Of a stretch of DNA of 61,656 bases, positions 3,461 through 58,764 are shown piece after piece; position 1 is the stretch's first letter; each line of letters starts with the position of its first letter. The position numbers were made by a program, and so were the translations under genes. The notes beneath the pieces were generated by a model. The model searched no databases. It saw only the letters and a list, made by a program, of their open reading frames with translations, and was not told the DNA's origin. The DNA comes from a virus (taxonomy: Duplodnaviria; Caudoviricetes), in the IMG/VR virus record IMGVR_UViG_3300028897_000348, positions 1 to 61,656 of that record; one strand, given 5' to 3'.

Positions 3461-4726
3461 ATGACTTATGTTCGTTATCCAGGAATGCTGGAGTTTGTTC
3501 AAGAACAGAAAGAAAACGGGTTAAATAGTAAAGAAATATATGATCTAGTTAGAAAAGAATTTGGCTACTCTAGTAGTTACCCAACATTCAGAAGATACGT
3601 AGTTTATGTTCAACAAAAGAAAACAGATATAGATATAAATATAGAACCAGAAGATATTGACACTTTAGATAAGAGATATAAAAAAATAAGAGTAAGTAGT
3701 CGAGATGATATAAAGTTTCTAGAAACAATATCTAAACACCGAGTTCTAAAAGTAGATGACCTTTGTAATAAACTAAATTGTCCTCCAAAAATTGTATATG
3801 ATTTTGTTGACCATTATAGATCCAAAGGATATGAAATTGTTGTTGATGACGATAAAGTTATCTTCTCAGAAGGAGTTGTATCGAACGGTGAACTTAGAGT
3901 ACATCCTCTTGAAGAAAAAGAAATAATATTTGGCGTAGCTGGTGACTTCCATTTTGGTTCGAAGTCAGTCCAAATAACGCCGTTAAATGAATTTTGCGAA
4001 TTGGCCAGGAAAAAAAGTGTAAAACACATGTTTATTCCTGGAGACATAGTTGCTGGTTATAATGTATATCCAGGTCAAGTATTTGATTTATACGCTATTA
4101 GTTCTGAAGAGCAAGAGAAGTCTGTAGTTACTAATTTACCTTATGGATTCGAATGGTATGCTCTTGGCGGGAATCATGATTACTCATTCATAAGACGAGG
4201 AGGTGGACATAATCCTTTATTAACAATTTCAAGTTTAAGAGAAGACTTCCATTATGTTGGATTTGATGAAGCAGACGTTCCAATTCTACCAGGAGTTGAT
4301 TTAAAAATGTGGCATCCGAGTGGGGGAGTTCCTTATTCAATATCATATCGACTACAAAAAGGAGTTGAACAAGTGGCGTTTGACGAACTTACTTCTATAG
4401 TAAGAGGAGTTAAATCAAGACCAACTATAAGGTTTATTCTCTCAGGTCACCTTCATATACAAATGCAAGCAATGTTTGGTAGTATATTTGGAACTCAATG
4501 TGGTTGCTTTGAAGGTCAAACAAACTACTTAAAAAGGAAAGGTCTCGTCCCACATGTTGGTGGATACATTATAGAAGCACTAATTGGAAAGAACGGACTA
4601 TTAAAGAATTTTGAAGCTAAATTCTACATCTTTGAAGAAGTAAAAGATGACTGGAAGAATTATAAACACAGTATTTCTGAACCAAAAATAACAAAACCTC
4701 TTTTTAATGGAAATAACGAAAGTTAA
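3461..4726 (+). CDS. Calcineurin-like metallophosphoesterase with N-terminal HTH-like region
   Basis: All five motifs present: GDFHFGS, GDIVAG, GNHD, WHP and GHLH. Confidence 0.85.
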   Translation: MTYVRYPGMLEFVQEQKENGLNSKEIYDLVRKEFGYSSSYPTFRRYVVYVQQKKTDIDINIEPEDIDTLDKRYKKIRVSSRDDIKFLETISKHRVLKVDDLCNKLNCPPKIVYDFVDHYRSKGYEIVVDDDKVIFSEGVVSNGELRVHPLEEKEIIFGVAGDFHFGSKSVQITPLNEFCELARKKSVKHMFIPGDIVAGYNVYPGQVFDLYAISSEEQEKSVVTNLPYGFEWYALGGNHDYSFIRRGGGHNPLLTISSLREDFHYVGFDEADVPILPGVDLKMWHPSGGVPYSISYRLQKGVEQVAFDELTSIVRGVKSRPTIRFILSGHLHIQMQAMFGSIFGTQCGCFEGQTNYLKRKGLVPHVGGYIIEALIGKNGLLKNFEAKFYIFEEVKDDWKNYKHSISEPKITKPLFNGNNES

Positions 4727-12426: not shown

Positions 12427-13497
12427 TTAGTATTCATAAGGACATATATCTGGATGTAACTTCAATCGATATCTACATGACTGGAAGGGTACAGAATTAT
12501 TCCAAGCATTTTCAATTGAGTTATTTTTTAACGAAATTCCAAACCTTTCATGATCAGCGAAAGAACATGGAACCAACTTCATGTCCGGAGTAATATAAGT
12601 TGACATCCTTCCAGCCTCACAAGTATCAATTGACATTTCTTGAAAAGAAGAAAATTTAGCGAACTTTTTTGTCTTGTTTACCATACAACTGTCAAGTCCG
12701 ACTTTAAATCTACAATGTGGTTCTCGAAGTAAATTACTAAGACGAAATATTTGACTTGTTTTTGGAATCCAATGCAAAAGATTCTTACCTCTTCCTTGTG
12801 GTTTAAATAAAAGAAAAATAACTGCATTGAGTCTCTCTAAATCTACTTTTTTATTCCACACATCAAACCCCTGTAATATTTTAATAGATCTCTCTGCAGA
12901 TATTCTTGTAAATACAAAATGTATATTAGTTTTGATACCCGCATCTACAAACATGTTTAATGCTTGATATGTAAAATCTTTTTGATAGTCAGAAACTGCT
13001 ACAGCACCACATAGTTTTGAAACTTCTACTTGAAAATTTGTTAACCCAATTCCACTTGTTGTATAGTTTGGAACTACATTATTTTTTCTCGAATATTCTA
13101 CTATCTCTCTAAAATCTTCATGTAAGTTTGGATCACCTCGTCCACCGAGAGCTACTTGATTCGTATGATGTTTACACTCATCAATAATTCGTTTGAAATC
13201 CTCAAGTTTCATATTGGGTTCTTGAGAACTACCTTGATAACAGAATTCACATTTATTCTTACAATGTCCCATTATCCCACAATCGATCATTGACGGCATA
13301 TCAAGAGAAAAAGGGTCTGGGTGACCATTAGTACCATGAAGTACTTCAAAACCTGTCCTCGTGTTGAATAATAGTTCATAGTGGTCGTTTCTAAAGCACT
13401 TATCAAAGTAACCAACTATTTCGATACTAGTATTTTCATCTCTTAATGTTTTGAATTCTATATCGAACTTATTATTGATTCCCATCTGTTTTCTCAC
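12427..13497 (-). CDS. Radical SAM enzyme with C-terminal SPASM/Twitch-like domain
   Basis: CKNKCEFC (CxxxCxxC), GGRGDPNLH, and CEAGRMSTYITPDMKLVPCSF with further C-terminal Cys; start may be the MGINN Met. Confidence 0.9.
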   Translation of the reverse strand: MRKQMGINNKFDIEFKTLRDENTSIEIVGYFDKCFRNDHYELLFNTRTGFEVLHGTNGHPDPFSLDMPSMIDCGIMGHCKNKCEFCYQGSSQEPNMKLEDFKRIIDECKHHTNQVALGGRGDPNLHEDFREIVEYSRKNNVVPNYTTSGIGLTNFQVEVSKLCGAVAVSDYQKDFTYQALNMFVDAGIKTNIHFVFTRISAERSIKILQGFDVWNKKVDLERLNAVIFLLFKPQGRGKNLLHWIPKTSQIFRLSNLLREPHCRFKVGLDSCMVNKTKKFAKFSSFQEMSIDTCEAGRMSTYITPDMKLVPCSFADHERFGISLKNNSIENAWNNSVPFQSCRYRLKLHPDICPYEY

Positions 13498-14294: not shown

Positions 14295-14515
14295 ATTTTA
14301 CTTCCATTCAGTTTTTTGACGATTGGAACTCCCTTTGTCCGTATTTTCTTTCTGACATACCAAATTGTTGGACAAATAGGACCTAAAAGAAAAATAAATA
14401 TGATAGAAAATAAGTCTACTAACATTATACCTTTATAGGACTTATTTACTCCTATAAAGTAATAGATACAAGAAACAAGGCCAATAAGTCCCCACAACAA
14501 TAATAGTAATTTCAT
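14291..14515 (-). CDS. Small membrane protein
   Basis: Two hydrophobic stretches; AGGAGG RBS; ATGA overlaps. Confidence 0.7.
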   Translation of the reverse strand: MKLLLLLWGLIGLVSCIYYFIGVNKSYKGIMLVDLFSIIFIFLLGPICPTIWYVRKKIRTKGVPIVKKLNGSKI

Positions 14516-15573
14516 TTGTTTACCTCCTTAGTTAAATAACTACTTACTATTAATATACATAACTTGTCCAACAATTCTTTGTCTGGTTTTTCTATTAAGA
14601 AACTATGTTTTTTAAGTTCTTTAAGTTCATTTGTTTGATCATTTGTTATCGATATTAATTCGTCATAAGAAATATTTCCAGATAAGATATATCTTAGTAT
14701 CTCTACATCTGGTCTAGGAAAAGTAATATTACCATCTGATAATACTTCATCTCCTTCTGATAACAAACGATACAAGTGAGTAGCATGTTTCAAGTCATAT
14801 CCAAATTTCTCTTCTAGTTTAGCCCTAGCAGGGTTTCTATTGTTCTTCCAATTTTGATATGACTTCCATTCTCTCATTGCATTCATATACGCTTTTTCTT
14901 TGTCAAGAGCCTCAATAAAGTTATCACTAATAGGCATTAATATTTTTATAGCTTCATAATCAGGTTCTTTTAAGTTTTGAGTCAAACTAATAAAAGAAAC
15001 GAATTCTTCCATTGACTCTAATTGCTCTCTCAACTCATGAAATTTTCCAATTTGTTGTAAGTATAAAGATAACAGTTTATTAAAAGCTCCAATTTGGTCT
15101 TTTGGAATTAAGGAATGGTTACTAGGAAGACCGTACTTCTCTCTTGTTGGATATTCTTTTGGTGGGTTTAAAAGCCAACTTCTATGACGTTTGATACGTT
15201 TTAGTTGCTCATTAGCATATCCAATAAATGTATCAGCACATAATTTAGAAACAATACTATCTCTCACAGAAACTATTTCAATCCATTCCTTTGATCGTAC
15301 TCTCCACAATTTCTTTGGAATAAATAGAAATTCAAGAACAGTAGGATTATTAGCTAATAACAGTTTCATGAAACTACGAATATCATAATAAGCTTTATCA
15401 TTCTCTTTATCTTCATAGTCTTTTAAACTAATTGTATTTAAAAAACCATAAAAATATTCCTTACTCGGTATGAAAACTCCTCTGATATCCATGTCTGATT
15501 CCTCTGTACTAGTTCCATATAGATTACTTCCCGTTATAGCTTCGAATATTAATTTAAAGTTGTTTGGTATCAT
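14512..15573 (-). CDS. Pol-beta superfamily nucleotidyltransferase (YcgL/RlaP-like)
   Basis: GSNLYGTSTEESDMDIRGVFIP (GS...DxD), NPTVLEFL, and GYDLKHATHLYRLL. Confidence 0.85.
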   Translation of the reverse strand: MIPNNFKLIFEAITGSNLYGTSTEESDMDIRGVFIPSKEYFYGFLNTISLKDYEDKENDKAYYDIRSFMKLLLANNPTVLEFLFIPKKLWRVRSKEWIEIVSVRDSIVSKLCADTFIGYANEQLKRIKRHRSWLLNPPKEYPTREKYGLPSNHSLIPKDQIGAFNKLLSLYLQQIGKFHELREQLESMEEFVSFISLTQNLKEPDYEAIKILMPISDNFIEALDKEKAYMNAMREWKSYQNWKNNRNPARAKLEEKFGYDLKHATHLYRLLSEGDEVLSDGNITFPRPDVEILRYILSGNISYDELISITNDQTNELKELKKHSFLIEKPDKELLDKLCILIVSSYLTKEVNK

Positions 15574-15914
15574 ATCAGACCATATTCTTTGAATTTCTGA
15601 TCTGCCTCTTCTTCAAGTTTGGCTTTTAGAACTTCTGAATTTCGTAGTAAGAAATTAAGCATTATTCCATCGAACACCAGTTTAGTAAACAATTTTGTTT
15701 CAAAGTCCCACTGTACTACTTCTTTTTCCTTACAAAGAACAGTTATTATATTCGTCATTACAGGTGGTATCTCTAAACTAACTGGCGTTTTTTCTTTTTT
15801 GTTAAACCAAAATAAAGGTCCATTTTCTAATGTTTCTACTACTATTTTCTTGACCATTGACTTTTCTTCCTCAGAAAGGTTAAATGGATTTTTAAGATAT
15901 TCATATATGTTCAT
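15570..15914 (-). CDS. Hypothetical protein
   Basis: 114-aa ORF with GGAGG RBS. Confidence 0.7.
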   Translation of the reverse strand: MNIYEYLKNPFNLSEEEKSMVKKIVVETLENGPLFWFNKKEKTPVSLEIPPVMTNIITVLCKEKEVVQWDFETKLFTKLVFDGIMLNFLLRNSEVLKAKLEEEADQKFKEYGLI

Positions 15915-17235
15915 TATATTCCTCCACTAATTTAGTTAGAATTTCTTTAGTGTTTAACTCTGGTTCATCTAGAACCTTATCTAAAAGAAAGTCAAGAATT
16001 TTTCCGATTATTGTTCCAGGACTTAAACCAGTTATTTCCATTATTTCATTTCCGTCTAATGCTAAATCACCAAACTTCTTCGGTGGTTTCTCGTTAACTA
16101 CTTTCTTTATAAACTCTAATAACGTTTTTACTTCATTAATTTTATACGGTAATTGTTTCAGATTTCCATGTTTGTCAGCAATTACTACTCTTATTAAATC
16201 CCTACAGTCTATTCCAGCTTCATGTAATTCTTTTAGAACTCGTCGAAGTGCTTTTGGATGACCAGGACTTATGTCTCTCATATGTAGAAATACTAATTTG
16301 GAAATATAGTCTATCTCTCTATTTGAGAACTTTAAAGTACTTAGTTCATCTTTTATTAAATCAACTCCGATATCAACATGACCAACAAACGTTAAGTCGT
16401 TCGTTCTTGGATTTATCTTACTCGCACTTGGTTTACCTACATCATGTAAATAAGTTGCTAACTTTAATAGTGGATATCTAGTAGAAATACAATCACCACA
16501 TATCATACTATGTTCAAAGACATCTTCATAATGATGCGGTCCATGTGGGTGATTAACACAGTCTTCTAACGATGGAAAAATATATATTAAGGCACCAATT
16601 TGGTGAAGAGTTCTAAAAAATTTTGAAGCTCTTCTGATTTCCATACTTTTAAGGATCTCAAGTCGGATCCTTTCTGGAGAAATAAGAGTTTCTACATAAT
16701 CAGAATATTCTCTAAGAGCATTCCACGTATTTTTCTCGATTATACCATCTAATCTTGCGTCAAACCTACAAGCTCTTATTATCCGATTTGGATCTTCAAG
16801 AATCCTCTTTTGAGGTTCTCCAACAAACTTTATTACTTTATTTTTAAGATCTTCCTTGCCTCCAAATAGGTCAATCAATTTATAATTTTTTACATCGAAA
16901 GCCATTGCATTGATTGTAAGATCTCTTCTAGCTAAATCTTCTTCTAAAGATCCAGCGAAAGTTACTTCTACATTTTTATCATTAAGACCACCATATCTAT
17001 CAATTCTATAAGTAGCTACTTCTACTCCATCAACTAAAACAACTCCAAAATTTTTTCCTACAGTCTTTATAGTTCTATCTCGAAATATATATTCAATCTC
17101 ATCGGGTCTAGCAGAAGTAACTATATCAATATCATGAGGTTCTTTTCCTAACAGATAATCTCTAACTGTACCACCAACTAAGTAAGCTTCGTATCCATAG
17201 TTATGTAATCTTTTAATTATCGGATGCGATCTCAA
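15901..17235 (-). CDS. cca: CCA-adding tRNA nucleotidyltransferase with HD domain
   Basis: VGGTVRD, DIDI, EVATYR, DLARRDLTINAMA, EDPNRIIRACRF and HD motif LHDVGKP; TTG start with AGGAGG RBS. Confidence 0.88.
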   Translation of the reverse strand: MRSHPIIKRLHNYGYEAYLVGGTVRDYLLGKEPHDIDIVTSARPDEIEYIFRDRTIKTVGKNFGVVLVDGVEVATYRIDRYGGLNDKNVEVTFAGSLEEDLARRDLTINAMAFDVKNYKLIDLFGGKEDLKNKVIKFVGEPQKRILEDPNRIIRACRFDARLDGIIEKNTWNALREYSDYVETLISPERIRLEILKSMEIRRASKFFRTLHQIGALIYIFPSLEDCVNHPHGPHHYEDVFEHSMICGDCISTRYPLLKLATYLHDVGKPSASKINPRTNDLTFVGHVDIGVDLIKDELSTLKFSNREIDYISKLVFLHMRDISPGHPKALRRVLKELHEAGIDCRDLIRVVIADKHGNLKQLPYKINEVKTLLEFIKKVVNEKPPKKFGDLALDGNEIMEITGLSPGTIIGKILDFLLDKVLDEPELNTKEILTKLVEEYNEHI

Positions 17236-42339: not shown

Positions 42340-43218
42340 CTAAATGTAGTAAGTATCGTCGAATCCCCCTTCAATTCCTTTCCAGTTTATTGCGATCGCC
42401 TCAGAAGTATGTATCGACTCTTCATGTATACATTTAATTATCCAATCAAAAAAGTCCTCTCGACCCTCAAGTGCTTTAGATATCTCTCGTATCGTATCTT
42501 CAACAAACATCGGGTTCTTAGCCGCGACCTTGGCTATTTCTTGTTCATCAACACGCTTTATTACAGGATATGGAAGAGTTTTTATAGCATCTTCTACTGT
42601 TTCAATAATATCTTCCAACCAAACATAATGTCTTTCTACTACTTGTACTAAAACATCAACAAAAGACCTTTGAGCATGTGGAAATCCCAAAATTTCTTTC
42701 TTCGATAAATCATTACAAAGCTCCGCTGAACATGGACAATATGAGGAATATTGTATTCTAACACCTTGAAAAAACTTAAAAGCATTAGCAGACCAACTTC
42801 CTTTACTTGATATTTCTGTAAGTTGTCCCTCAAATCTACATTTATAATAAATTGGAAATTCATTATCAGAAACTGGTGATCTCTTAATTATTGGTAATCT
42901 AAACTCAAATTTCATAAAACTGTTTGTAGAACCAATATTTATTTTTAGATCTTCTAATATTTCTCTTATTAAAATATGTTTCAATGGTTTTTCAAGATAT
43001 TCCTTTAAAGTAAGTATTAGTCTTGACATAGAAATACCTCTAACAGAAGGACCTAAACTAGTTCGCATCGAGACTCGAGCTACTAAGTCAGAAAATCCAC
43101 CGTACTTCAATTCCAGTTTAAACGGAACTTCTAAGTTCTCAATACCTACTTGTTGAATTGGAATCTCAATTTTAGGTCTTGTTTGTTGAATGTCTGATAA
43201 ATCATCTTTTTCCATCAT
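42340..43218 (-). CDS. folE2: GTP cyclohydrolase IB
   Basis: DIQ, QVGI, RGISMSR, SYCPCS, PHAQRS, KRVDEQ, NPMFVED and EESIH. Confidence 0.92.
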   Translation of the reverse strand: MMEKDDLSDIQQTRPKIEIPIQQVGIENLEVPFKLELKYGGFSDLVARVSMRTSLGPSVRGISMSRLILTLKEYLEKPLKHILIREILEDLKINIGSTNSFMKFEFRLPIIKRSPVSDNEFPIYYKCRFEGQLTEISSKGSWSANAFKFFQGVRIQYSSYCPCSAELCNDLSKKEILGFPHAQRSFVDVLVQVVERHYVWLEDIIETVEDAIKTLPYPVIKRVDEQEIAKVAAKNPMFVEDTIREISKALEGREDFFDWIIKCIHEESIHTSEAIAINWKGIEGGFDDTYYI

Positions 43219-49215: not shown

Positions 49216-49419
49216 TTAATCGAATTTTTCTTTGATAAATTCTGCTATTTCTACAAAATGTTGTTTTACTTTTTTAGAAATTAAACGGTCGAGATCTGAT
49301 TGAATTTCTTGTACAATTTTTGAGATCTCGGCTTTAGTGATTTCAGTTTGTGTTTCCTTCACTTTTTTCTCAACTAGTTCATTTACTTCTTTCTCGATTT
49401 GTTCACTTAAAATCGTCAT
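49216..49419 (-). CDS. Small coiled-coil protein
   Basis: MTILSEQIEKEV... start preferred to minimise overlap with the upstream gene. Confidence 0.6.
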   Translation of the reverse strand: MTILSEQIEKEVNELVEKKVKETQTEITKAEISKIVQEIQSDLDRLISKKVKQHFVEIAEFIKEKFD

Positions 49420-49912
49420 CAACTTTTCCTTTCTTCCTTTGTTGAGGGAGTATTCTACCTTTATCAAAAATACTTTTGATTTTATCTTCTATAAATCTTG
49501 AAATTAAACCTAATTTAGGTGAGTTAGAAAAAACGTCTGTTTCTTTTCTTTCTTTTCCTATTTTTAACCACTTTTCAACTCCGATACTTTCATATTTAAT
49601 TTCTCCCCACGGAGTAAAGTAACAATTATCCAAGTTGAAAATATTGATCATATGTTCTATATACTCAATAGACTGTTCATTAAGAGGGAGATTTCTCAAC
49701 TCAAACGGTATACAAAATTCGTTTGTATCTGGGTCAGAATTTGGATGTATAGAATCTAAATAAACTGAGTCAATTTTTCCGTCAACTAATCTAACTGTAT
49801 ATTTCCTTATAACATATTTTGGGTCAATATCCGTAATTCTAAACAAACTATTTCTGTATATCATTTTCTTTGGAACTATAACTTTTTTTGTTTCTACCTC
49901 TTTTATACTCAT
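49403..49912 (-). CDS. Putative E2 (UBC-fold)-like protein
   Basis: HPNSDPDTNEFC = HPN-x8-C, the spacing of UBC active sites; coupled to a ThiF gene. Confidence 0.5.
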   Translation of the reverse strand: MSIKEVETKKVIVPKKMIYRNSLFRITDIDPKYVIRKYTVRLVDGKIDSVYLDSIHPNSDPDTNEFCIPFELRNLPLNEQSIEYIEHMINIFNLDNCYFTPWGEIKYESIGVEKWLKIGKERKETDVFSNSPKLGLISRFIEDKIKSIFDKGRILPQQRKKGKVDDDFK

Positions 49913-50769
49913 TACGCTGCTCCAGTCTCTGGAATTAGTACTACGTAATTTTTATCTTTTTCTGTATAAGTAGATATAATAAAGTTATTAAATATAACTG
50001 GTAAGTTTAACATAGAAGTTAAATTAACAATAACATCTTCTCCAGATTTTAAAGAACCAGCTGGTATAGTTTTTACTGAAACATTTTTTTCACCAATACA
50101 CATACTTACATCTAAATCTGATTTTTTATTCATTTGAAGAATTGGAAGTAAATTTTCTTTTAAGTTTATTAGTTTCTCCTCTCCAACAGTAGCGTCATAA
50201 GCCACATCATCTGTACTTTGATTCATCTGTTTTAAATAATCTAAATCAAATTTACTTACATTATTATCTCGGATTAAAGAAGAAATAATATCGCTCTCGA
50301 TGAGCGTTGTTACCATATTAGCGGCGTTTCTCAAATCACCTTTAGTCAATCTACTTATGTATCTCCCTTCGAAATGTCTATCATACATTACATTCTTGCG
50401 ACAGTCTACTATTAAGTATCTCGACGATATATGCAACCTCGCATGGATTAAATCTTTCCTGTCATAAGTAAAATCTCTACAATCTAATATCAAATCGCAG
50501 TTTGGTAATTCTTCTTCTCCTTCAACAAATCTTGTATTTAATTTTACAACTTCTAAATCTTTATTCCTTGCCTGAATTATATCTGAGATCGCGTCAACTT
50601 TTAGTTTTCCAACATCGTTAGTTTTATATATAGCATTTCTCAAGTTCTTCTCATATACGACGTCATAGTCTACTAAGACTATCTTCTTTATCATATCAAG
50701 TTGTGAAATAACGTCGGCAACAAATCCACCGAGAGTTCCAAGTCCGATAACAGCAATATTAGAATACAT
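49912..50769 (-). CDS. ThiF/MoeB/E1-family adenylyltransferase-like protein (second copy)
   Basis: IAVIGLGTLG, LVDYDVVYEKNLRN, DVGKLKV and LILDCRD. Confidence 0.85.
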   Translation of the reverse strand: MYSNIAVIGLGTLGGFVADVISQLDMIKKIVLVDYDVVYEKNLRNAIYKTNDVGKLKVDAISDIIQARNKDLEVVKLNTRFVEGEEELPNCDLILDCRDFTYDRKDLIHARLHISSRYLIVDCRKNVMYDRHFEGRYISRLTKGDLRNAANMVTTLIESDIISSLIRDNNVSKFDLDYLKQMNQSTDDVAYDATVGEEKLINLKENLLPILQMNKKSDLDVSMCIGEKNVSVKTIPAGSLKSGEDVIVNLTSMLNLPVIFNNFIISTYTEKDKNYVVLIPETGAA

Positions 50770-50805
50770 CTTATCCTTCCAAAATAAAGATTTTTACAAT
50801 CAAAA

Positions 50806-51081
50806 TCAAGAACTTTCTTTACTACTTTCAAAATTAACAATAAGTTCTAGTATTTCCGGGCCACGATCTAAAATAAATTTAACTTCTTCTTTATTAAGAC
50901 GTCCTATCTTAGAATAACCTATTGTACCATCTTGTTTCTTAAAAGACCTCACAAGTTGAAGTTTTGCTTCGCCTCCATCATAAGAAAATACTGATAGCTG
51001 TAAAGTCGACTTCTCCTGTTCAAATTCAAACAATTTTATCAAAATGTCTTTCTCTTGGTCATATCCCATATTTTTCTCCAT
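50806..51081 (-). CDS. Putative PC4/YdbC-like nucleic-acid-binding protein
   Basis: SVFSYDGGEAKLQLVR...KIGRLNKEEV pattern. Confidence 0.5.
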   Translation of the reverse strand: MEKNMGYDQEKDILIKLFEFEQEKSTLQLSVFSYDGGEAKLQLVRSFKKQDGTIGYSKIGRLNKEEVKFILDRGPEILELIVNFESSKESS

Positions 51082-51088
51082 TTAAGTT

Positions 51089-51118
51089 AACGGGACGAAC
51101 AAATATTCGTCCCGTTTT
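51089..51118. terminator. Hairpin terminator
   Basis: Stem AACGGGACGAA / TTCGTCCCGTT. Confidence 0.7.
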
Positions 51119-51127
51119 CTAAAGGAA

Positions 51128-51718
51128 TTATAAGAGGAATAGTCTCTTCTCCGTATCGGTTGGATCAGGCATAAATTCAGATTTAAACTTAAAAACTTTG
51201 ACAGTTTCTTTTAATGGATAATCTCGTGGAATCTTATATAGAATCTTAACTTTCTTATTTCCCTTTGAATCTTCTTCTGTTAAAGTCTTAATCCAATTTT
51301 TATCGTCAGCTTTTAAACCAGAAAGAATAGGAAGAACTTCACCATTAAAAAAGTCAAGATCTTGATCATTTCTCATTCTCATAGATCTCCCAACAAACAA
51401 AGTCTTCCAACGATATGGCTGATTATTAATCGGTTCAGAACTCACTTTATACTCAGCAGCTTTTAGTGCTCTACTTAAAGCAATTCCTCTTCCAGTTGCT
51501 TTCGAAAATGAGTCTAGAACAGAACATATAGCAACTCCTCTAGCAATCATAGTCTTATCAATGTTAAAGAAAACACAAGCAGTAAAAATATTTTGAGTCA
51601 CTGGTGAAGTATGACGATAATATTTTACAGATACTTGTAAATCGTCTAATCTTTCCTCTACTGTTTTCCTTACTTTAACATTAACAACAGACCCTTCTAC
51701 ATTTGTTTTTGATTTCAT
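51128..51718 (-). CDS. Hypothetical phage protein
   Basis: GVAICSVLDSFSKATGRGIALSRA pattern resembles small phage proteins; function unknown. Confidence 0.7.
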   Translation of the reverse strand: MKSKTNVEGSVVNVKVRKTVEERLDDLQVSVKYYRHTSPVTQNIFTACVFFNIDKTMIARGVAICSVLDSFSKATGRGIALSRALKAAEYKVSSEPINNQPYRWKTLFVGRSMRMRNDQDLDFFNGEVLPILSGLKADDKNWIKTLTEEDSKGNKKVKILYKIPRDYPLKETVKVFKFKSEFMPDPTDTEKRLFLL

Positions 51719-51744
51719 TTCTCTAATTCCTTAGTTTTAATGAA

Positions 51745-51768
51745 GGGAACTAGATAATTCTAGCTCCC
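51745..51768 (-). terminator. Hairpin downstream of the Ubl gene
   Basis: GGGAACTAGA / TCTAGCTCCC stem. Confidence 0.55.
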
Positions 51769-51785
51769 CCCATATTCCCAGTTGT

Positions 51786-52253
51786 CTAACCTTTAGTTCC
51801 AGCTGTTTTTAAGAACTCAAGCGTGTCTCCCGGTTGAAGGATGTAACCATCGTTTACTGGATTTCCATTAACAATTCCTTGTGCTAGTCGGTCAACATTT
51901 AGAACTTCCTTCAAGAACTCAGCTACAGCACCTACAGTCTTATATGCTACATCAAAAGTTCCAGAAGCAGCGCCGCTTGAGACCCGAACAGTAGTAGTAG
52001 TCCTATCACCTTTCTGATTCTGAGGTTTCGTTAACCTACTTTCAAACGTACCTGCCATAGCAGTAACTCGCTGATCCACTTTTTTCGAAGGTGCTACAGA
52101 AGCTGTACCACCTTGCTTCTCAAGAATCGCACTTATGATCACATCTTTCCTTTTCTTAGTTAACCCAGGAATGTTAAGATCATAAACACACATTTGTCTT
52201 AATTCGACTACCGTTTTTTGTTCGAGTTGTTCTCTTGTATACGTAGTAGACAT
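51786..52253 (-). CDS. Ubiquitin-like (beta-grasp, ThiS/MoaD-type) protein with N-terminal HeH/Rho-N-like domain, C-terminus AGTKG
   Basis: IVNGNPV..GYILQPGDTLEFLKTAGTKG*; N-terminal KTVVELRQMC..LNIPGLTKKRKDVIISAI. Confidence 0.8.
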   Translation of the reverse strand: MSTTYTREQLEQKTVVELRQMCVYDLNIPGLTKKRKDVIISAILEKQGGTASVAPSKKVDQRVTAMAGTFESRLTKPQNQKGDRTTTTVRVSSGAASGTFDVAYKTVGAVAEFLKEVLNVDRLAQGIVNGNPVNDGYILQPGDTLEFLKTAGTKG

Positions 52254-52255
52254 TA

Positions 52256-52948
52256 CTACCTCCTTTGTCTAATTGTTCTGACTTTGGCGTCAGATGTCAT
52301 TGTCAAAATATCAAAATAGACTTCAGAGAACTTGTAGTTCTCTTTTATAGCAACATTATAAAGTGCCCAGCACATGATTGTTGCTACTCCCATATTAGTA
52401 AAAAGTAACTGAGGTTCTGACTTAGATAACTCTTCACAAGATAGTTCATCAGGCGTTTTGTCAAGTGGATTTTGTATTTCTGGATGATAGGCGCATAAGT
52501 CCGGCGTTAAATCTTTACCCTCCTTTCTGACATAAATTTGCACGTTCCCATCTGTATATTCATTTCCGCCTGAAACTAGAGTTACATTCTGTAACTCCTT
52601 ACAATAATTTGATACCAGCATCCTCGTTTTATGATTATCTACACCTAGAAGAACTATATCATTCTCCTTTATTATACTTGGTATAATATTCTCGTCAACA
52701 AAACAAGGAACTGAGTTAATTGTTACATGTTCGAACTTAATACTAAGTTCTCTCTCCTTTACATCAGCCTTATTTCCCAACTGAGAAAATTCCTGTCTCT
52801 CAGTATTTTTCAATTCGTAACTATCTCCATCAACTAATGTTATTTCAGTCTGTATGTCTCTCAAATGGTCTACAAATCTACAAACTTTCTCCGATAAAAT
52901 AGAACCAATTCCACCTAAACCAATAATCCTTACCTTCATCTCCTTCAT
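52256..52948 (-). CDS. E1/ThiF-family activating enzyme
   Basis: IIGLGGIGS, LVDGDSYELKNTERQ, GVDNHKTR, and SCEELS..EPQLLFTN with candidate catalytic Cys. Confidence 0.9.
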   Translation of the reverse strand: MKEMKVRIIGLGGIGSILSEKVCRFVDHLRDIQTEITLVDGDSYELKNTERQEFSQLGNKADVKERELSIKFEHVTINSVPCFVDENIIPSIIKENDIVLLGVDNHKTRMLVSNYCKELQNVTLVSGGNEYTDGNVQIYVRKEGKDLTPDLCAYHPEIQNPLDKTPDELSCEELSKSEPQLLFTNMGVATIMCWALYNVAIKENYKFSEVYFDILTMTSDAKVRTIRQRR

Positions 52949-52994
52949 TTAAATCCTCCATTAAGAAATAATAAAATCTGATTCAAAGAATGTC

Positions 52995-53969
52995 TTATTC
53001 CAAATCTAAAATATCTTTTAATATTAGATCTACTTTAAAATTTCTAAACATACAATCCGTACATGGGTTATAAGACTCGTCTCGATCTTCGTCTTTCTTG
53101 ACGTCAACAATTGAGGTAACTCCAACTTGCTTAGTTGGACTTTGATATGATTGGAACAAATCTGCATAACCTGAATACAAACTAGTAAAATCTACATATT
53201 TACCACTATAAGCAGTATATGTTGTTTTTCTTGACTTAACAAACCCAATCCACCTTTTATCAAATTTCCTTTCTTCTCTACTAGCTAAAATTGTATAACC
53301 AAGTTTAGACTTTACATATTTTTTGTACTCTTTTTTTCCACCAACTACTGTAAAATTAGGCTTAAACATCGAAGGCCACCAAGGAGTATATTCAACTAAA
53401 TTTAAACCATCTATATACTCTGTAGGACTCACCATAAATCTATAACCATTTGCCATAACTGACGCAGAAATAGATATAAATTGATCATCTACGTCTCCAA
53501 TAGTAATATGAAGTCCGTCAAAGTGCGCCTCGTCCATATGATCAATAGTTGAGTGAAAAGCAGACATATTTCCATGACTATGAATTGAACCTATCAAATT
53601 ATAACCATCATATAAAACATTTTTTACATAACTAATTCCACCATATGAAACTTCTTGGGGTGGTACTTGTATTATATAACGTTTTTTCTTCTGATTATAA
53701 TGAAGAAGAACACAAGCTTCGCTCTTCTTTAGTTCATAAATTGTTTTAAAGAACTCAAAGACTTTTGCGAATCTTTCACTAGGAATCTTCTTGATATGTA
53801 GAGTTGCTTCTGGAGAAATATCTTCCAATATCGAAATTTTATCAACTGGCGCTAAACTCTCAAGAACACCCATTCTTTTCTTTAAATAAATTCCACCTTT
53901 TGCTATAACATAAAAGATATCATCATTTGGAAGTTCTGATTTTCCATCATGTATAACTACTTTAAACAT
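52995..53969 (-). CDS. JAB/MPN+ (JAMM) metalloprotease, PRTRC protein A-like
   Basis: SEAC Glu followed by HSHGNMSAFHSTID = HxH-x7-S-x2-D. Confidence 0.9.
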   Translation of the reverse strand: MFKVVIHDGKSELPNDDIFYVIAKGGIYLKKRMGVLESLAPVDKISILEDISPEATLHIKKIPSERFAKVFEFFKTIYELKKSEACVLLHYNQKKKRYIIQVPPQEVSYGGISYVKNVLYDGYNLIGSIHSHGNMSAFHSTIDHMDEAHFDGLHITIGDVDDQFISISASVMANGYRFMVSPTEYIDGLNLVEYTPWWPSMFKPNFTVVGGKKEYKKYVKSKLGYTILASREERKFDKRWIGFVKSRKTTYTAYSGKYVDFTSLYSGYADLFQSYQSPTKQVGVTSIVDVKKDEDRDESYNPCTDCMFRNFKVDLILKDILDLE

Positions 53970-56487
53970 TGTATATTAACCTCCTATCAACTCGAAAAAC
54001 CATAGGTGATCTTGGTTCTTCTGTATATAATCCATGAAAATTTGGAAATAAAGTTCTTCTGGAAAAACCTTGTTCTTTACTTTCAGAATATCTTGGCATC
54101 AGAAAACCATACCTAGTTTTTGATGTAACATAACCTGGACTTTCAAATCCCCAGAAAGCACCAACATTACTATAATTTTGAAGTGAAAAGTATACACTAT
54201 ATCCACCTCTGTCTTTTACAGACATATAATGATATAATTTTTTGGAATAAGTAGAAGTAACAAAAATATCACCTGGTTGATTTCTAATCCTATTTAACTT
54301 CAGTGGAACATGTTGTAAGTTATTCCATTCTTTAGAATCTGGAGGAATCAAATCAAAATTCTCTTCGAGGTCAAAAATCCACAATGTACAACAATTAGAA
54401 CATAGTACAAGAGATGGTCCACCAGTATCAATTATAAAAGCTACAATCATATTTATATCTTTCTTTGGAAAGCATGAAATCCCTGTAGTTTTTGCTCTGA
54501 TTTTTGTACCAACCTTAATTCCATTAAGTTCGTTAACAACTTTACGAACTAATCCTACTTCTACATCTCCAGTTAAAATGTTAACATATGTTACTTCTTT
54601 TTTTTCCATCTTATGTTCCAAACAAAGTTTTATATCAACCGAATCCGTTTTAAAACCAGTAACTGTCCAAACTTTTAACATCTGCATTGGATCAACCCAA
54701 TCTGCAACTACTACTTTGTCATTAACACTAAAACTGATATCTAAGTCAAAACTCCTAATTTCGAGTTTATTATCTTTAATAATCTCTTGTCCAGCAACTT
54801 CTGAACTATAATTCTTCTCAAGTTCAAGTCGACCATTAAGTAGTACTTTATTACCTCTCGAATAAACAGTTTTTCCAGAATCTATAAGAAGTTTTCTTCC
54901 AACTCGAAAAAGTTTACCTACATGTTGAAACTTCTGTTTAGGTTCAATATTCCAGTTATCATCACCAACACTTATATTGTACTTCTTGCCTGTCATGAGA
55001 CTAAATTCCATAACTAATTTTCCGTCTTTAGAATTATTTAACTGATTAAACTTAACTTCAAAACAAGAAGAAATTGGAAGACTATTCGTTTTAACTTCTG
55101 TTAAAAAGTATTTTTTCCCCGATTGTAATCTCACTGACTTATAAGAAAAGTCCTTGAAATCAATTAGTTCTGCTTCTAGATTTTTTGCAATATAATAATC
55201 ATTTAGTAACTTAACTTCTACTAATCCATCTCTAGCAATTCGAATCTTCTCTACCGTTCTATATGACTTCACTGGAAAATCAACACATAATATATCACCT
55301 ACTTTAATCACTTTCTTATCACTAAGTTTTACTGAATCTAAAAACTTAGTTTTGTCAAGTTGTTCACTAAAAGTATCTAACACATTCTTTGTTAACTCAA
55401 CTGTTTCTATATTTCCATCTTCACTTTCAATATTAACATGAGTAGGTTCTAATGAATCTTTCGGACCAAGGAATGAGTAAATATAATAATTCTTCCCTTG
55501 AAATATAACTGCCTCACCAATAGAAAGTTCTTTATTTGACAGAAATATTGAGTCACAAACATTATCTAACTCTGGACCATCTTCAGTAGGAATTTCTACT
55601 TGGGGTTTAACAAAAACTGCTCTTACATTATTATAAGTTAAATGACCCCCTTCTTCACTTCTACCAGAAGCGTCAACTATCATAGATTTAAGCAAAGAAC
55701 CTACAGTATGTGTATATTTAATCCACGGAATGTTAAAAACAAACAACGGATCTCGATTTGTATTATATGACCAAGTCAAGAAACTACATATTTCTGGAAC
55801 ATCATCGTACTTCCTGTAATTTTCTGTATAGTCACCATTAAACGAGTTAACCCACCATTTTTCTAGAGCTTCATAGAATGACTCAGCTAGTGGTAGATAT
55901 TTTGACGAAGGGTCTCCAAGACAAGCCGAAGAAGAAGAATCTAAATTCGGAAGATTACAAACAAGAAGATAATCTGAAAAAGAACTAATAGGACTTAATC
56001 GATAAAATACTTTAAATCTATCATACACAAATTTGTTTCTTTCACTATAGAAGGAAACAAAGTAAACTATATATGGAAATGATAAAGTAAATCTGAACGG
56101 AGAATTATTCTTTTCAAGGAAATTTTTAAATCCATACTCAACTAGTTTACCTGTTTTTTTAAGACGTTCAATATCACGTTCCATACTCAGTTTAACTAAA
56201 ATTGTTCTAATCTTTGGTGAGTCTTCAACTACAAGAATTACATAAGATCCAAATCTTCTAACAAATCTACAGTTTTGAGGAAGTACATCTAATACTTGAC
56301 TACCACTTAACTTACTAAGTTTATATAAAAAATCTCTAGTCAACAAAGTCTTATTTCTTATTCTTGGTTCTGTATCTCCAACTTGTTGGTCATGAACTTT
56401 AGACACTAAACAACTAGAGTACCTTGAATCAATTCGTATCTCATGTATTGCCTCACTAGTATCAGGAAACATATCATACCTTCTCAT
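53962..56487 (-). CDS. Large protein with N-terminal prokaryotic E2 (family D / PRTRC protein B-like) domain and long C-terminal extension
   Basis: LSFPYIVY, NLPNLDSSSSACLG (PN-x7-C) and WWVNSFN; adjacent to JAB, E1 and Ubl genes. Confidence 0.7.
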   Translation of the reverse strand: MRRYDMFPDTSEAIHEIRIDSRYSSCLVSKVHDQQVGDTEPRIRNKTLLTRDFLYKLSKLSGSQVLDVLPQNCRFVRRFGSYVILVVEDSPKIRTILVKLSMERDIERLKKTGKLVEYGFKNFLEKNNSPFRFTLSFPYIVYFVSFYSERNKFVYDRFKVFYRLSPISSFSDYLLVCNLPNLDSSSSACLGDPSSKYLPLAESFYEALEKWWVNSFNGDYTENYRKYDDVPEICSFLTWSYNTNRDPLFVFNIPWIKYTHTVGSLLKSMIVDASGRSEEGGHLTYNNVRAVFVKPQVEIPTEDGPELDNVCDSIFLSNKELSIGEAVIFQGKNYYIYSFLGPKDSLEPTHVNIESEDGNIETVELTKNVLDTFSEQLDKTKFLDSVKLSDKKVIKVGDILCVDFPVKSYRTVEKIRIARDGLVEVKLLNDYYIAKNLEAELIDFKDFSYKSVRLQSGKKYFLTEVKTNSLPISSCFEVKFNQLNNSKDGKLVMEFSLMTGKKYNISVGDDNWNIEPKQKFQHVGKLFRVGRKLLIDSGKTVYSRGNKVLLNGRLELEKNYSSEVAGQEIIKDNKLEIRSFDLDISFSVNDKVVVADWVDPMQMLKVWTVTGFKTDSVDIKLCLEHKMEKKEVTYVNILTGDVEVGLVRKVVNELNGIKVGTKIRAKTTGISCFPKKDINMIVAFIIDTGGPSLVLCSNCCTLWIFDLEENFDLIPPDSKEWNNLQHVPLKLNRIRNQPGDIFVTSTYSKKLYHYMSVKDRGGYSVYFSLQNYSNVGAFWGFESPGYVTSKTRYGFLMPRYSESKEQGFSRRTLFPNFHGLYTEEPRSPMVFRVDRRLIYNV

Positions 56488-56488
56488 A

Positions 56489-56869
56489 TTATTCTCCCTT
56501 CATAAATTTAAATATTTTCACATATTCTTTAACTATTTTACCAGCCTCATTCTCTCTAATTTCAGTTGCTTTAGACCTCTTCATATTGTCAAGACCTTTC
56601 TTCCTCGCGTTAGTCCACAGGACTATTATATATCGTTGAGACATTTCTCTTTCTAAAGCAAGAAACGCTACCTCTTCCTTTGTTCTACCAGGAACTTCTA
56701 GTGCTAAAAATATATTTGGTCCACTTGGTAAATTATTGAAATGTTTTATATTTCCTTTTTCTTTTTCTTCATCAAAAATCTTATCACATATTTCTCTTAC
56801 TTGTTGGTCAACATCATTTGACTCAATCTCGTTTAGAAGAGTTTCCAGAATTCCCACTTTTCCCTCCAA
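56489..56869 (-). CDS. Hypothetical protein
   Basis: 126-aa ORF in operon. Confidence 0.7.
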   Translation of the reverse strand: MEGKVGILETLLNEIESNDVDQQVREICDKIFDEEKEKGNIKHFNNLPSGPNIFLALEVPGRTKEEVAFLALEREMSQRYIIVLWTNARKKGLDNMKRSKATEIRENEAGKIVKEYVKIFKFMKGE

Positions 56870-57419: not shown

Positions 57420-57728
57420 TTACTTTACCCTATAGAATCTTCGTTTTTGAGGATCCTCTACCCACTCAACTTTATCAAAGGGAACTGATCTCCAGTCATG
57501 TTTTTCTAAGTCGTAAACATGAAGAATTCCATGTTGATGCATTAACTTCAAGATCTTAGATAAATTTACTCCTTTCGGACGGTTTGATACTGGTATCTTA
57601 TCAAAATTTAATGTACATTTCATTAAACGAATAGTGCCATCTTTCTTCGTAAACTTAACAGTTATTTCATCTTCTTCTTTGATCTTGTCTAAAAAGTCAG
57701 TAACAGTACGTATTATATCATTTGGCAT
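57420..57728 (-). CDS. SH3/Sm-like beta-barrel phage protein (DUF2693 / WYL_2-like)
   Basis: VKFTKKDGTIRLMKCTL...VYDLEKHDWRSV. Confidence 0.75.
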   Translation of the reverse strand: MPNDIIRTVTDFLDKIKEEDEITVKFTKKDGTIRLMKCTLNFDKIPVSNRPKGVNLSKILKLMHQHGILHVYDLEKHDWRSVPFDKVEWVEDPQKRRFYRVK

Positions 57729-57729
57729 A

Positions 57730-58764
57730 TCATATTTTCCTCCTATCTAAATGTACTAAATCACCTAAACTTTCTTTATCATCAACTAATTCTGCCATCA
57801 TAGTACAAGTCCAGTTACATTTTTTACAGTAGAACCTTTTATCTCTAAACAAATATACTTTCAAAAACGGATTAAGTTCATTATCATTTGTAAAAAGATT
57901 AGAAAGACTCATATATTTTGGAGAGTCAACCCCTCTAACTCGTAGACAAAGTCTTATAGATGAGTCTGCGTCAACAGTTATAACTTGGACATCATGATAG
58001 TTACTACATTCCATATCAGAAGGGAGTGAGTCCCATATCTTAGCCACTAAATCCTTACCCATATGAACATTTAATTTATCATTAAAAATCTTTTTAAACT
58101 CTTCCGCCAGTTGCGCTGATGGATATACTAAAGTACTCTCGTCTCTGATATTAGAGAAATCATAATATGGAGTTTTTGCTATATCAACAAATGTTATAGA
58201 ACTACTTATATCACGACTATCTAAATCTTTTACAAGACGATGTAAATATTGTACAGTATTCTTATCAACAGTTATCTCAGCAACTAAATCTTTTACAAAC
58301 TTCTCAAATCTAGTTAACTTCTTAATTCCAGAAATACTTTTCAAAACAATATCACCGCTAGCATTTTTATCGAAAATAATAGGATCTACTGAAGATGTAA
58401 GACCACCAACAAACTCTACTTTAGAAAATAGGTTCTCCAACATTGGTTGAACTTGATCTGAATTATTTGTAATAATTGTATAGAAAATATCTTCTTTGTT
58501 ACAATAGTTAATAATCTCAGGGAGATCTTTTCTTAACAGAGGTTCGCCACCATACAATATATGGAAACAATCTGGATTATGAAGTTTGAATCTCCTAAGA
58601 CCTTCAATAACTGTATCAGTCGACATTTCGTTTTCTAGATAATACTTCATATCCGGATATTCAGTAGGTTTCCCATCATAGTCTCGAACTATAGAACAAT
58701 ATTCACACCTTAAATTACATCGTCTTGTTAATAACCAGTTAACAATTTTTACTTTATCCATCAT
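57730..58764 (-). CDS. Radical SAM enzyme (second), with C-terminal Cys cluster
   Basis: CNLRCEYC, YGGEPLLR, ITN, and C-terminal C...DADSSIRLC...CKKCNWTC. Confidence 0.9.
   Translation of the reverse strand: MMDKVKIVNWLLTRRCNLRCEYCSIVRDYDGKPTEYPDMKYYLENEMSTDTVIEGLRRFKLHNPDCFHILYGGEPLLRKDLPEIINYCNKEDIFYTIITNNSDQVQPMLENLFSKVEFVGGLTSSVDPIIFDKNASGDIVLKSISGIKKLTRFEKFVKDLVAEITVDKNTVQYLHRLVKDLDSRDISSSITFVDIAKTPYYDFSNIRDESTLVYPSAQLAEEFKKIFNDKLNVHMGKDLVAKIWDSLPSDMECSNYHDVQVITVDADSSIRLCLRVRGVDSPKYMSLSNLFTNDNELNPFLKVYLFRDKRFYCKKCNWTCTMMAELVDDKESLGDLVHLDRRKI

Follow-up and report, generated by a model that had tools for sequence, protein, structure and literature searches.

In bacteria, tagging with ubiquitin-like proteins (Ubls) has so far been shown as a weapon of the host against phages, in the Bil systems and in type II CBASS. 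Bil systems encode E1, E2, Ubl, and JAB-type deubiquitinase as separate genes, and the Ubls of Bil-type systems carry diverse N-terminal domains (PMC11601603). The ParB-Related, ThiF-Related Cassette (PRTRC), represented by NCBIfam models TIGR03734-03742, seems to correspond to the type 6d operons that Iyer, Burroughs, and Aravind described (2006; PMC1779556) without ever using the name PRTRC. Their section on type 6d lists a JAB protein, an E1, a small Ubl with a C-terminal Gly, and an E2 that is His-less at the motif, has a conserved Cys, and carries an invariant His downstream. Here we analyze a 61,656-base viral record, IMGVR_UViG_3300028897_000348 (the whole of which is called the window below), in which a block of minus-strand genes at 49403..56487 encodes a Ubl, two E1-like proteins, two E2-like proteins, and a JAB/JAMM metalloprotease. 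On balance we consider it probable, with a good deal of doubt left, that this block is a phage-encoded system for conjugating the Ubl to proteins.

An earlier note on this DNA, made from the sequence alone, had described four contiguous, co-oriented, tightly spaced genes, and minus-strand open reading frames (ORFs) carrying all of the motifs that it quoted were found at its coordinates. The first is big841 (53962..56487; 841 amino acids [aa]), in which a putative UBC-like N-terminal domain is followed by about 560 residues of beta-rich C-terminal region. The JAB/JAMM metalloprotease gene (52995..53969; 324 aa) overlaps big841 by 8 nucleotides (nt), E1a, a ThiF-type adenylating enzyme (52256..52948; 230 aa), follows after a gap of 46 nt, and the Ubl (51786..52253; 155 aa) follows E1a after 2 nt. 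The note had taken the cassette to be complete at 51786, which proved too narrow: the block runs on to 49403 and takes in E1b, a second protein matching Pfam ThiF (49912..50769; 285 aa), and p169, a small E2-like protein with an HPN-x8-Cys motif (49403..49912; 169 aa). Between the Ubl and E1b lie p196 (51128..51718; 196 aa) and p91 (50806..51081; 91 aa), and p126 (56489..56869; 126 aa) stands directly upstream of big841, all three on the same strand.

Conservation was surveyed by tblastn in 48 related viral loci (L002 to L049); L002 and L022 lie on one contig, several pairs of loci encode identical proteins, and some of the upstream misses are loci that end at contig edges. The genes for big841, JAB, E1a, Ubl, E1b, and the RNA polymerase beta' subunit were each found in 48/48 loci, p169 in 45, p126 in 43 (invariably right upstream of big841), and SbcC in 37. 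All matches keep one order and one strand, with the block beside the RNA polymerase beta' gene, so the synteny survey that the note had called for returned a constant arrangement in every locus. p196 (14/48) and p91 (8/48) come and go, and they are variable accessories. The statement that the phage itself carries the cassette also held up, since all 48 loci are viral and a search of 185,579 species genomes gave only two loci, both on contigs of metagenome-assembled genomes. Recent insertion of a host mobile element, which the note had named as the case that would undo its reading, was considered and rejected because of the conserved synteny and because the GC content across the cassette (0.31-0.33) is the same as that of its flanks.

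Among the products encoded in the window are a tail sheath, baseplate proteins, a large terminase, an SbcC-like nuclease, and the beta and beta' subunits of RNA polymerase, both unsplit. CheckV puts the completeness of the window at about 20%, so that the full genome would measure roughly 300 kb. The beta' subunit shares at most 27-30% identity with any listed phage record, and neither blastn with the cassette nor tblastn with big841 gave a match in 50,697 phage records. On the basis of its gene content, its distant beta' subunit, and the lack of a match among these records, we conclude that the source virus is an uncultured jumbo myophage.

E1a matches Pfam ThiF (PF00899) above the family cutoff (E = 2.8e-20; 72.9 bits versus a cutoff of 28.1). 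It also matches PRTRC_ThiF, below that model's cutoff (E = 2.2e-10; 40.3 bits versus 144.75), and general MoeB/ThiF models outscore PRTRC_ThiF slightly. The ATP site is intact, with the GxGxxG motif and the nucleotide- and Mg-binding residues in place, and G10, G12, G13, G15, D40, N48, R51, Q52, K60, D104, N105, R109, and C171 are invariant in 42 E1a sequences. The C-terminal SC pair in which the note had seen a candidate catalytic Cys is S170-C171, and C171 is conserved in gp194 of a Bacillus phage as well. From this pattern, Cys171 is a candidate for the catalytic Cys that would accept the Ubl.

The Ubl ends in AGTKG directly before its stop codon, with G155 as the terminal residue, and none of 41 Ubl sequences differs at G152, K154, or G155. 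In the window copy, Rho_N matches residues 9-47 (nt 52113-52229) above cutoff (E = 3.1e-6), and the only beta-grasp match is to ThiS (E = 0.12). When the 41 Ubls were scanned member by member with Pfam, 35 matched TGS, 33 Rho_N, 28 ThiS, 18 Ub-Mut7C, and 7 SAP, with best E values of 1e-7 for TGS and 7e-5 for ThiS. The Ubl profile searched against PDB sequences returned Rho N-terminal domains and a weak FHA match only. On the basis of the member-by-member scan, the Ubl is predicted to have a Rho_N/SAP-type helix-extended-helix head that a linker joins to a beta-grasp domain at about residues 85-155, in agreement with the earlier description of a beta-grasp protein that ends in a free Gly.

The families matched by E1a and the Ubl bring sulfur relay into consideration. 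In such a pathway, following the pattern of ThiS, MoaD, and TtuB, the E1a-activated Ubl would become a thiocarboxylate sulfur donor for modification of phage nucleic acids or cofactors, and the JAB would only trim the carrier. MoeB and ThiF head the NCBIfam matches of E1a, the beta-grasp matches are to ThiS, TGS, and MoaD, and the radical SAM genes and FolE2 of the window suggest nucleotide modification chemistry. However, the radical SAM and FolE2 genes do not adjoin E1a or the Ubl, and a scan of the 53 window ORFs with NCBIfam (12 ORFs at E ≤ 0.1 and 41 at E ≤ 0.001) found no rhodanese, cysteine desulfurase, sulfurtransferase, or cofactor-synthesis family name. Two conserved E2-like proteins with an invariant Cys would serve no purpose in a relay, and a carrier with a 47-residue nucleic-acid-binding head is unlike ThiS or MoaD. 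We therefore regard sulfur relay as very unlikely.

The JAB protein has E84, H130-S-H132, seven residues, S140, two residues, and D143, and none of the five metal-site positions (E84, H130, H132, S140, and D143) varies across 41 JAB sequences. Both family matches are below cutoff: Prok-JAB (PF14464) at E = 2.2e-4 (21.5 bits versus 25) and PRTRC_A at E = 1.1e-11 (44.7 bits versus 101.8). The JAB profile gave no match at E ≤ 0.01 against PDB sequences. Taken with the invariant site, these matches support the JAMM protease named in the note. The window protein has a single C-terminal CxxC pair. Its relatives span 300-627 aa, and the long ones have several such pairs, which are probably zinc ribbons; genes of such relatives are found, for example, at L002:6244-7998 and L020:12562-14445.

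Because the window Ubl already ends in Gly, the note had argued that the JAB would be a deconjugase rather than a maturase. This does not survive at the level of the family. Among the 41 distinct Ubls, 28 end at the Gly, 10 carry one extra Cys, and 3 have five-residue tails, so that 13/41 extend 1 to 5 residues past it. These variable residues would mark a precursor that needs trimming; the Ubl of the window phage would be mature as made, and for the family as a whole maturation would belong to the job. The JAMM enzyme is the sole protease seen in the block, and because of these extensions it probably matures the Ubl in addition to deconjugating it.

The protease could also be the working part of a counterdefense, in which it would strip host Ubl-type marks, for example from virion proteins tagged by Bil or from a Cap2-primed CD-NTase, while the E1, E2, and Ubl serve as decoys or regulators. 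Host Bil does conjugate its Ubl to phage tail proteins (PMC11601603), Cap2 conjugates CD-NTase (10.1101/2023.09.04.556158), the JAMM site is invariant, and E1b resembles the E1 part of Cap2. Decoys, however, need no invariant ATP site, E1 Cys, E2 Cys, and Ubl Gly across relatives whose big841 proteins share 27-68% identity with the window copy, and the Ubl tails suggest that the substrate of the JAB is the Ubl of the phage itself. A term search of the Bil preprint gave no occurrence of "phage-encoded," "phages encode," or "prophage." Stripping of host marks as the purpose of the block is, in our estimate, highly improbable.

The E2-like positions of a conjugation pathway would be filled by big841 and p169. 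In big841, P180-N181 is followed by seven residues and C189-L-G191, and N181, C189, and G191 never vary in alignments with 11 and with 15 relatives. The putative UBC-like domain is placed at about residues 62-255 (55723..56304, minus strand), with the C189 codon at 55921-55923. The window copy has no family match in Pfam, NCBIfam, PHROG, or PADLOC scans. Pfam Prok-E2_D (PF14460) was matched by five family members out of the 15 scanned, the best of them at E = 2.2e-4. The ESM Atlas assigns residues 59-285 to clusters of viral proteins of 239-267 aa, and Prok-E2_D is present in 19-40% of the cluster members. An AlphaFold2 (AF2) model of residues 1-280, made with 15 sequences, has a pLDDT of 84.5 and places C189 in a loop between the last strand and the helix at 200-213. 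Foldseek searches of the PDB with the big841 and p169 models gave no row at E ≤ 0.001. The claim that the N terminus of big841 is E2-like is thus supported by the invariant motif and by the Prok-E2_D matches of its relatives, but not by any family match of the window copy. We hold with moderate confidence that it is a distant UBC domain of the Prok-E2_D/PRTRC_B-like kind, and a UBC-like, catalytic role is probable from the conserved motif.

The family of big841 is large: a library of 1.84 billion proteins contains 1,468 representatives of it at E ≤ 1e-3, of which 265 reach E ≤ 1e-30, and nearly all are about 820-900 aa long. Its C-terminal 560 residues have the appearance of small beta-rich modules in series, with repeated G-D-x-V/I motifs. 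At profile positions of about 338-405 the RAD23 ubiquitin-like domain is matched weakly (E = 0.57), which is no more than a lead.

In p169, H56-P57-N58 and C67 are invariant in 38 sequences. Of 37 distinct relatives, 29 have 8 residues between HPN and Cys, 5 have 6-7, and 3 have 20-21. The AF2 model has a pLDDT above 93 for residues 1-110 and a tail predicted to be disordered, and it puts the motif between a strand (46-52) and helices (70-73 and 79-89). All 50 PDB rows listed in the fold comparison of p169 are E2s. When the p169 profile was compared with PDB sequences, its motif aligned on the catalytic HPN...Cys of the E2s 1yrv (E = 0.18) and Pex4 (E = 0.87); the top-scoring match is a designed helical repeat protein (E = 0.0037), over a short motif only. 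The order of strand, HPN, loop, Cys, and helix is that of eukaryotic E2 (UBC) enzymes. A Pfam scan of p169 gave no match, and none of its 44 database relatives bears any name other than hypothetical protein. An hhalign comparison of p169 with big841 aligned their Asn...Cys loops at a nonsignificant E of 0.19. From its motif and its predicted structure, we read p169 as a small protein of putative UBC-like fold whose HPN-x8-Cys motif is of the E2 type. The ends of its gene are uncertain, because its relatives are shorter (108-158 aa) and its C-terminal tail overlaps the next ORF (49216-49467, minus strand; 83 aa, TTG start).

E1b, the E1-like neighbor of p169, matches Pfam ThiF over residues 3-109 only (E = 5.5e-16; 58.9 bits). 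PADLOC finds a Cap2-type "E1-E2" model at E = 1.3e-10 and BilD at E = 9e-4. Against the PDB, the profile matches MoeB (1e-12), ThiF, MccB, PaaA, Cap2, and UBA5, again with its N-terminal half only, and hhalign aligns E1b with E1a over only about 100 residues (probability, 96%). G9, G11, G14, D34, K57, and D96 are kept. A complex prediction with E1a, E1b, and residues 1-115 of p169 gave an ipSAE of 0.00 in two runs without controls and is uninformative either way.

The end of E1b is conserved: 41/41 distinct relatives end in [T/R]-G-[A/G/S]-[A/S] followed by the stop, and Gly283 is invariant. This raises a noncanonical donor or acceptor, in which the Gly-Ala-Ala tail of E1b would be activated, as Cap2 does with CD-NTase, or the Ubl would be joined to nucleic acid, lipid, or a small molecule, or through oxyesters as in Bub pathways. 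Apart from the tail itself, MccB and PaaA, which are among the PDB matches of E1b, act on peptide C termini, and Bub pathways use oxyesters (PMC11601596), with BubCD chains present among the fold rows. Set against this are the lack of a detectable beta-grasp signal in the tail region of E1b, catalytic positions that are Cys and not Ser, and a canonical Ubl with an invariant Gly in 48/48 loci. None of 42 E1b sequences scanned with Pfam matched a beta-grasp family, and hhalign of the Ubl against E1b gave nothing. In the C-terminal alignment of E1b a strand-strand-helix-strand-strand pattern can be seen, by eye only. We judge a noncanonical donor or acceptor to be quite unlikely.

The note had set the cassette beside PRTRC, and the kinship was confirmed as a remote one. 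PRTRC (as type 6d; PMC1779556) and the block have in common a JAB that is extended at its N terminus, an E1 of the ThiF type, a small Ubl whose conserved C-terminal Gly ends an A-G-x-K-G-type tail, and a His-less E2-like protein with a conserved Cys. They differ in that the E2-like domain of the block is fused to about 560 extra residues, its Ubl has the Rho_N/SAP head, and the block additionally encodes E1b and the HPN-Cys protein p169; the block keeps a fixed place next to the RNA polymerase genes in a jumbo phage, whereas PRTRC is found on plasmids or integrative and conjugative elements. When TIGR03735-03738 were tested, the window proteins fell below every PRTRC cutoff, and the big841 N domain and the Ubl gave no match to PRTRC_B and PRTRC_C at E ≤ 1. 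PRTRC_B was matched by one of the four relatives' N domains scanned (that of L002, E = 0.025), and the two relatives' Ubls scanned gave no PRTRC_C match. The 53 window ORFs contained no match to PRTRC_D, E, or F and, as the note had stated, none to a ParB homologue or to a thiamine or molybdopterin biosynthesis family. By these comparisons the block is best described as a remote, ParB-less relative of PRTRC, and not as a member by NCBIfam rules.

The link to PRTRC is made through cultured phages. A tblastn search with E1a gave six phage records, three of which are Bacillus jumbo phages with a PRTRC-like cassette (vB_BauM_KLEB27-3, vB_BceM_WH1, and Edson; about 30% identity). In KLEB27-3 the PRTRC-like set comprises gp194-gp199 (OM634661, 718-6708). 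Of these, gp199 has four tandem PRTRC_C repeats above cutoff (E = 8.8e-17), and gp194, gp195, and gp196 match PRTRC_ThiF (E = 7.7e-31), PRTRC_A (E = 3e-7), and PRTRC_B (E = 0.0011). By hhalign, the ThiF protein gp194 is similar to the E1a family (probability, 99.5%; E = 1e-22) over a region that spans the Cys motif, and the JAB protein gp195 is similar to the window JAB family (probability, 98%; E = 1.8e-13). Because the JAB and ThiF proteins of KLEB27-3 are homologous to both, they tie the block to PRTRC. The other proteins are less alike: gp196 aligns with the big841 N domain over 200 columns (E = 0.0098) but stands alone at 255 aa, and gp199 has no Rho_N head and a tail that resembles the Ubl tail weakly (E = 0.13). 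There was no detectable likeness between gp197 (559 aa) and big841, and none between gp198 and the Ubl. No second E1 is annotated near the KLEB27-3 cassette; the HPN-Cys protein was not searched for there. By analogy, the block may work as PRTRC is thought to.

The resemblance to the host systems is more in architecture. Like the block, Bil has separate E1, E2, Ubl, and JAB genes and Ubls with N-terminal domains, but it is host encoded and antiphage, whereas the block is phage borne. Of the PADLOC models BilA to BilD, the sole match is that of E1b to BilD; the other eight proteins scanned had no Bil match. Type II CBASS Cap2/Cap3 is like the block in that a JAB accompanies the E1 and E2 activities and a protein C terminus would be activated, and Cap2 is among both the PDB matches of E1b and the fold rows. 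In contrast to Cap2, the E1 and E2 of the block are unfused, and the PADLOC "E1-E2" models match E1a and E1b over the E1 Rossmann part only. Family scans of the window ORFs gave no CD-NTase or CBASS effector family name.

Several observations weigh against protein conjugation. The window copies of big841 and p169 match no Pfam E2 family, and their fold scores are weak. big841 lacks the His of HPN and also the downstream invariant His that the section on type 6d E2s describes (PMC1779556). E1b lacks the conserved Arg at the NxxRQ position, and its C-terminal ~110 residues match no fold in the comparisons run. The best NCBIfam names for E1a belong to sulfur-carrier enzymes, and the beta-grasp matches of the Ubl are to TGS, ThiS, and MoaD and not to ubiquitin. 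Among the matches listed in a literature search for a mechanistic study of PRTRC, none was found; they were genome, transcriptome, or unrelated studies.

We nevertheless favor protein conjugation, because the active-site residues are invariant in E1a, JAMM, Ubl, big841, and p169, and because a beta-grasp Ubl with precursor-like tails, two putatively UBC-like proteins, a conserved gene order, and homology to PRTRC occur together. The absence of rhodanese, desulfurase, or cofactor-synthesis names among the 53 ORFs and the match to the parts listed in the type 6d section point the same way. From the genes, their families, their catalytic residues, and their conservation, we infer the following chemical steps, order of transfer, and targets. 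The JAMM protease would trim residues past the invariant Gly of the Ubl precursor. E1a would then adenylate Gly155 of the Ubl and load it onto Cys171, from which it would pass to an E2-like Cys, either Cys189 of big841, Cys67 of p169, or both. The C-terminal ~560 residues of big841, the putative equivalent of PRTRC_B/Prok-E2_D, would pick the substrate, and the Ubl would be joined to the target protein, bringing its nucleic-acid-binding head along. The JAMM protease would probably also strip the Ubl from its targets. E1b and p169 would form a second E1/E2-like pair, in which E1b might either join E1a as its partner and bring in p169 or have its own conserved Gly-small-small C terminus activated. 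The RNA polymerase neighborhood and the nucleic-acid-binding head suggest, as a guess, that tagging acts on DNA- or RNA-bound proteins.

A more elaborate form of conjugation would be a two-tier, eukaryote-like cascade run by an entire lineage of jumbo phages. Here an asymmetric pair of E1a and the half-degenerate E1b, resembling UBA3/APPBP1, would charge p169 as a canonical HPN-Cys mini-E2 together with big841 as a giant E2/E3-like scaffold, and the head-bearing Ubl would mark or tether proteins on DNA or RNA. We think this unlikely. If true, it could, for example, steer the adjacent phage RNA polymerase or silence host nucleoid proteins, and the Gly-Ala-Ala end of E1b could be a second conjugatable C terminus.

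Family scans gave little for the small proteins in and next to the block. p126 had no match in Pfam, NCBIfam, PHROG, or PADLOC, p91 matched no family at useful E values, and p196 had one weak PHROG match, to a family of unknown function, and no match to PDB sequences. Between 46000 and 61656, promoter-like sites (76 found versus 71 expected) and terminator-like sites (6 versus 4.8) are at chance level. Two genes upstream of big841, a protein with a WYL_2 domain (an Sm-like SH3 barrel; 57420-57728, minus strand; E = 5.5e-10) keeps its place in 43/48 loci and could be a regulator of the block. The radical SAM gene at 57730-58764 is kept upstream of the cassette in 42/48 related loci. It is one of two radical SAM/SPASM-like genes in the window, the other lying at 12427-13497, and GTP cyclohydrolase FolE2 is encoded at 42340-43218 (217 bits versus a cutoff of 215), all on the minus strand. 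Together these genes may point to nucleotide or cofactor modification chemistry of the phage. Farther away on the minus strand are a CCA-adding tRNA nucleotidyltransferase with an HD domain (15901-17235) and an RlaP-like nucleotidyltransferase (14512-15573); ARAGORN found no tRNA genes in the window. A 421-aa protein on the plus strand (3461-4726) matches the phosphoesterase part of the small subunit of archaeal DNA polymerase II (E = 2.6e-13, far under cutoff) and may be an Mre11/SbcD-type nuclease.

A literature search, with subscription journals outside its scope, found no published description of a phage Ubl cassette, including that of KLEB27-3. A term search of a 2021 overview of jumbo phages (PMC7824862) gave no occurrence of "JAB," "Ubl," or "E1-like." Whereas Bil and type II CBASS belong to the host, the putative tagging machinery described here sits on the virus side and is conserved across a large group of uncultured jumbo phages. 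Its putative parts include an unusual tag whose head would bind nucleic acid, an E2 that is fused into a giant protein, and an additional pair of E1 and E2. KLEB27-3 is a cultured jumbo phage and hence offers a tractable model for this type of cassette. If proteins are conjugated, the block would be a ubiquitin-like system run by a phage, and it would provide a tractable way into the function of PRTRC-type cassettes.

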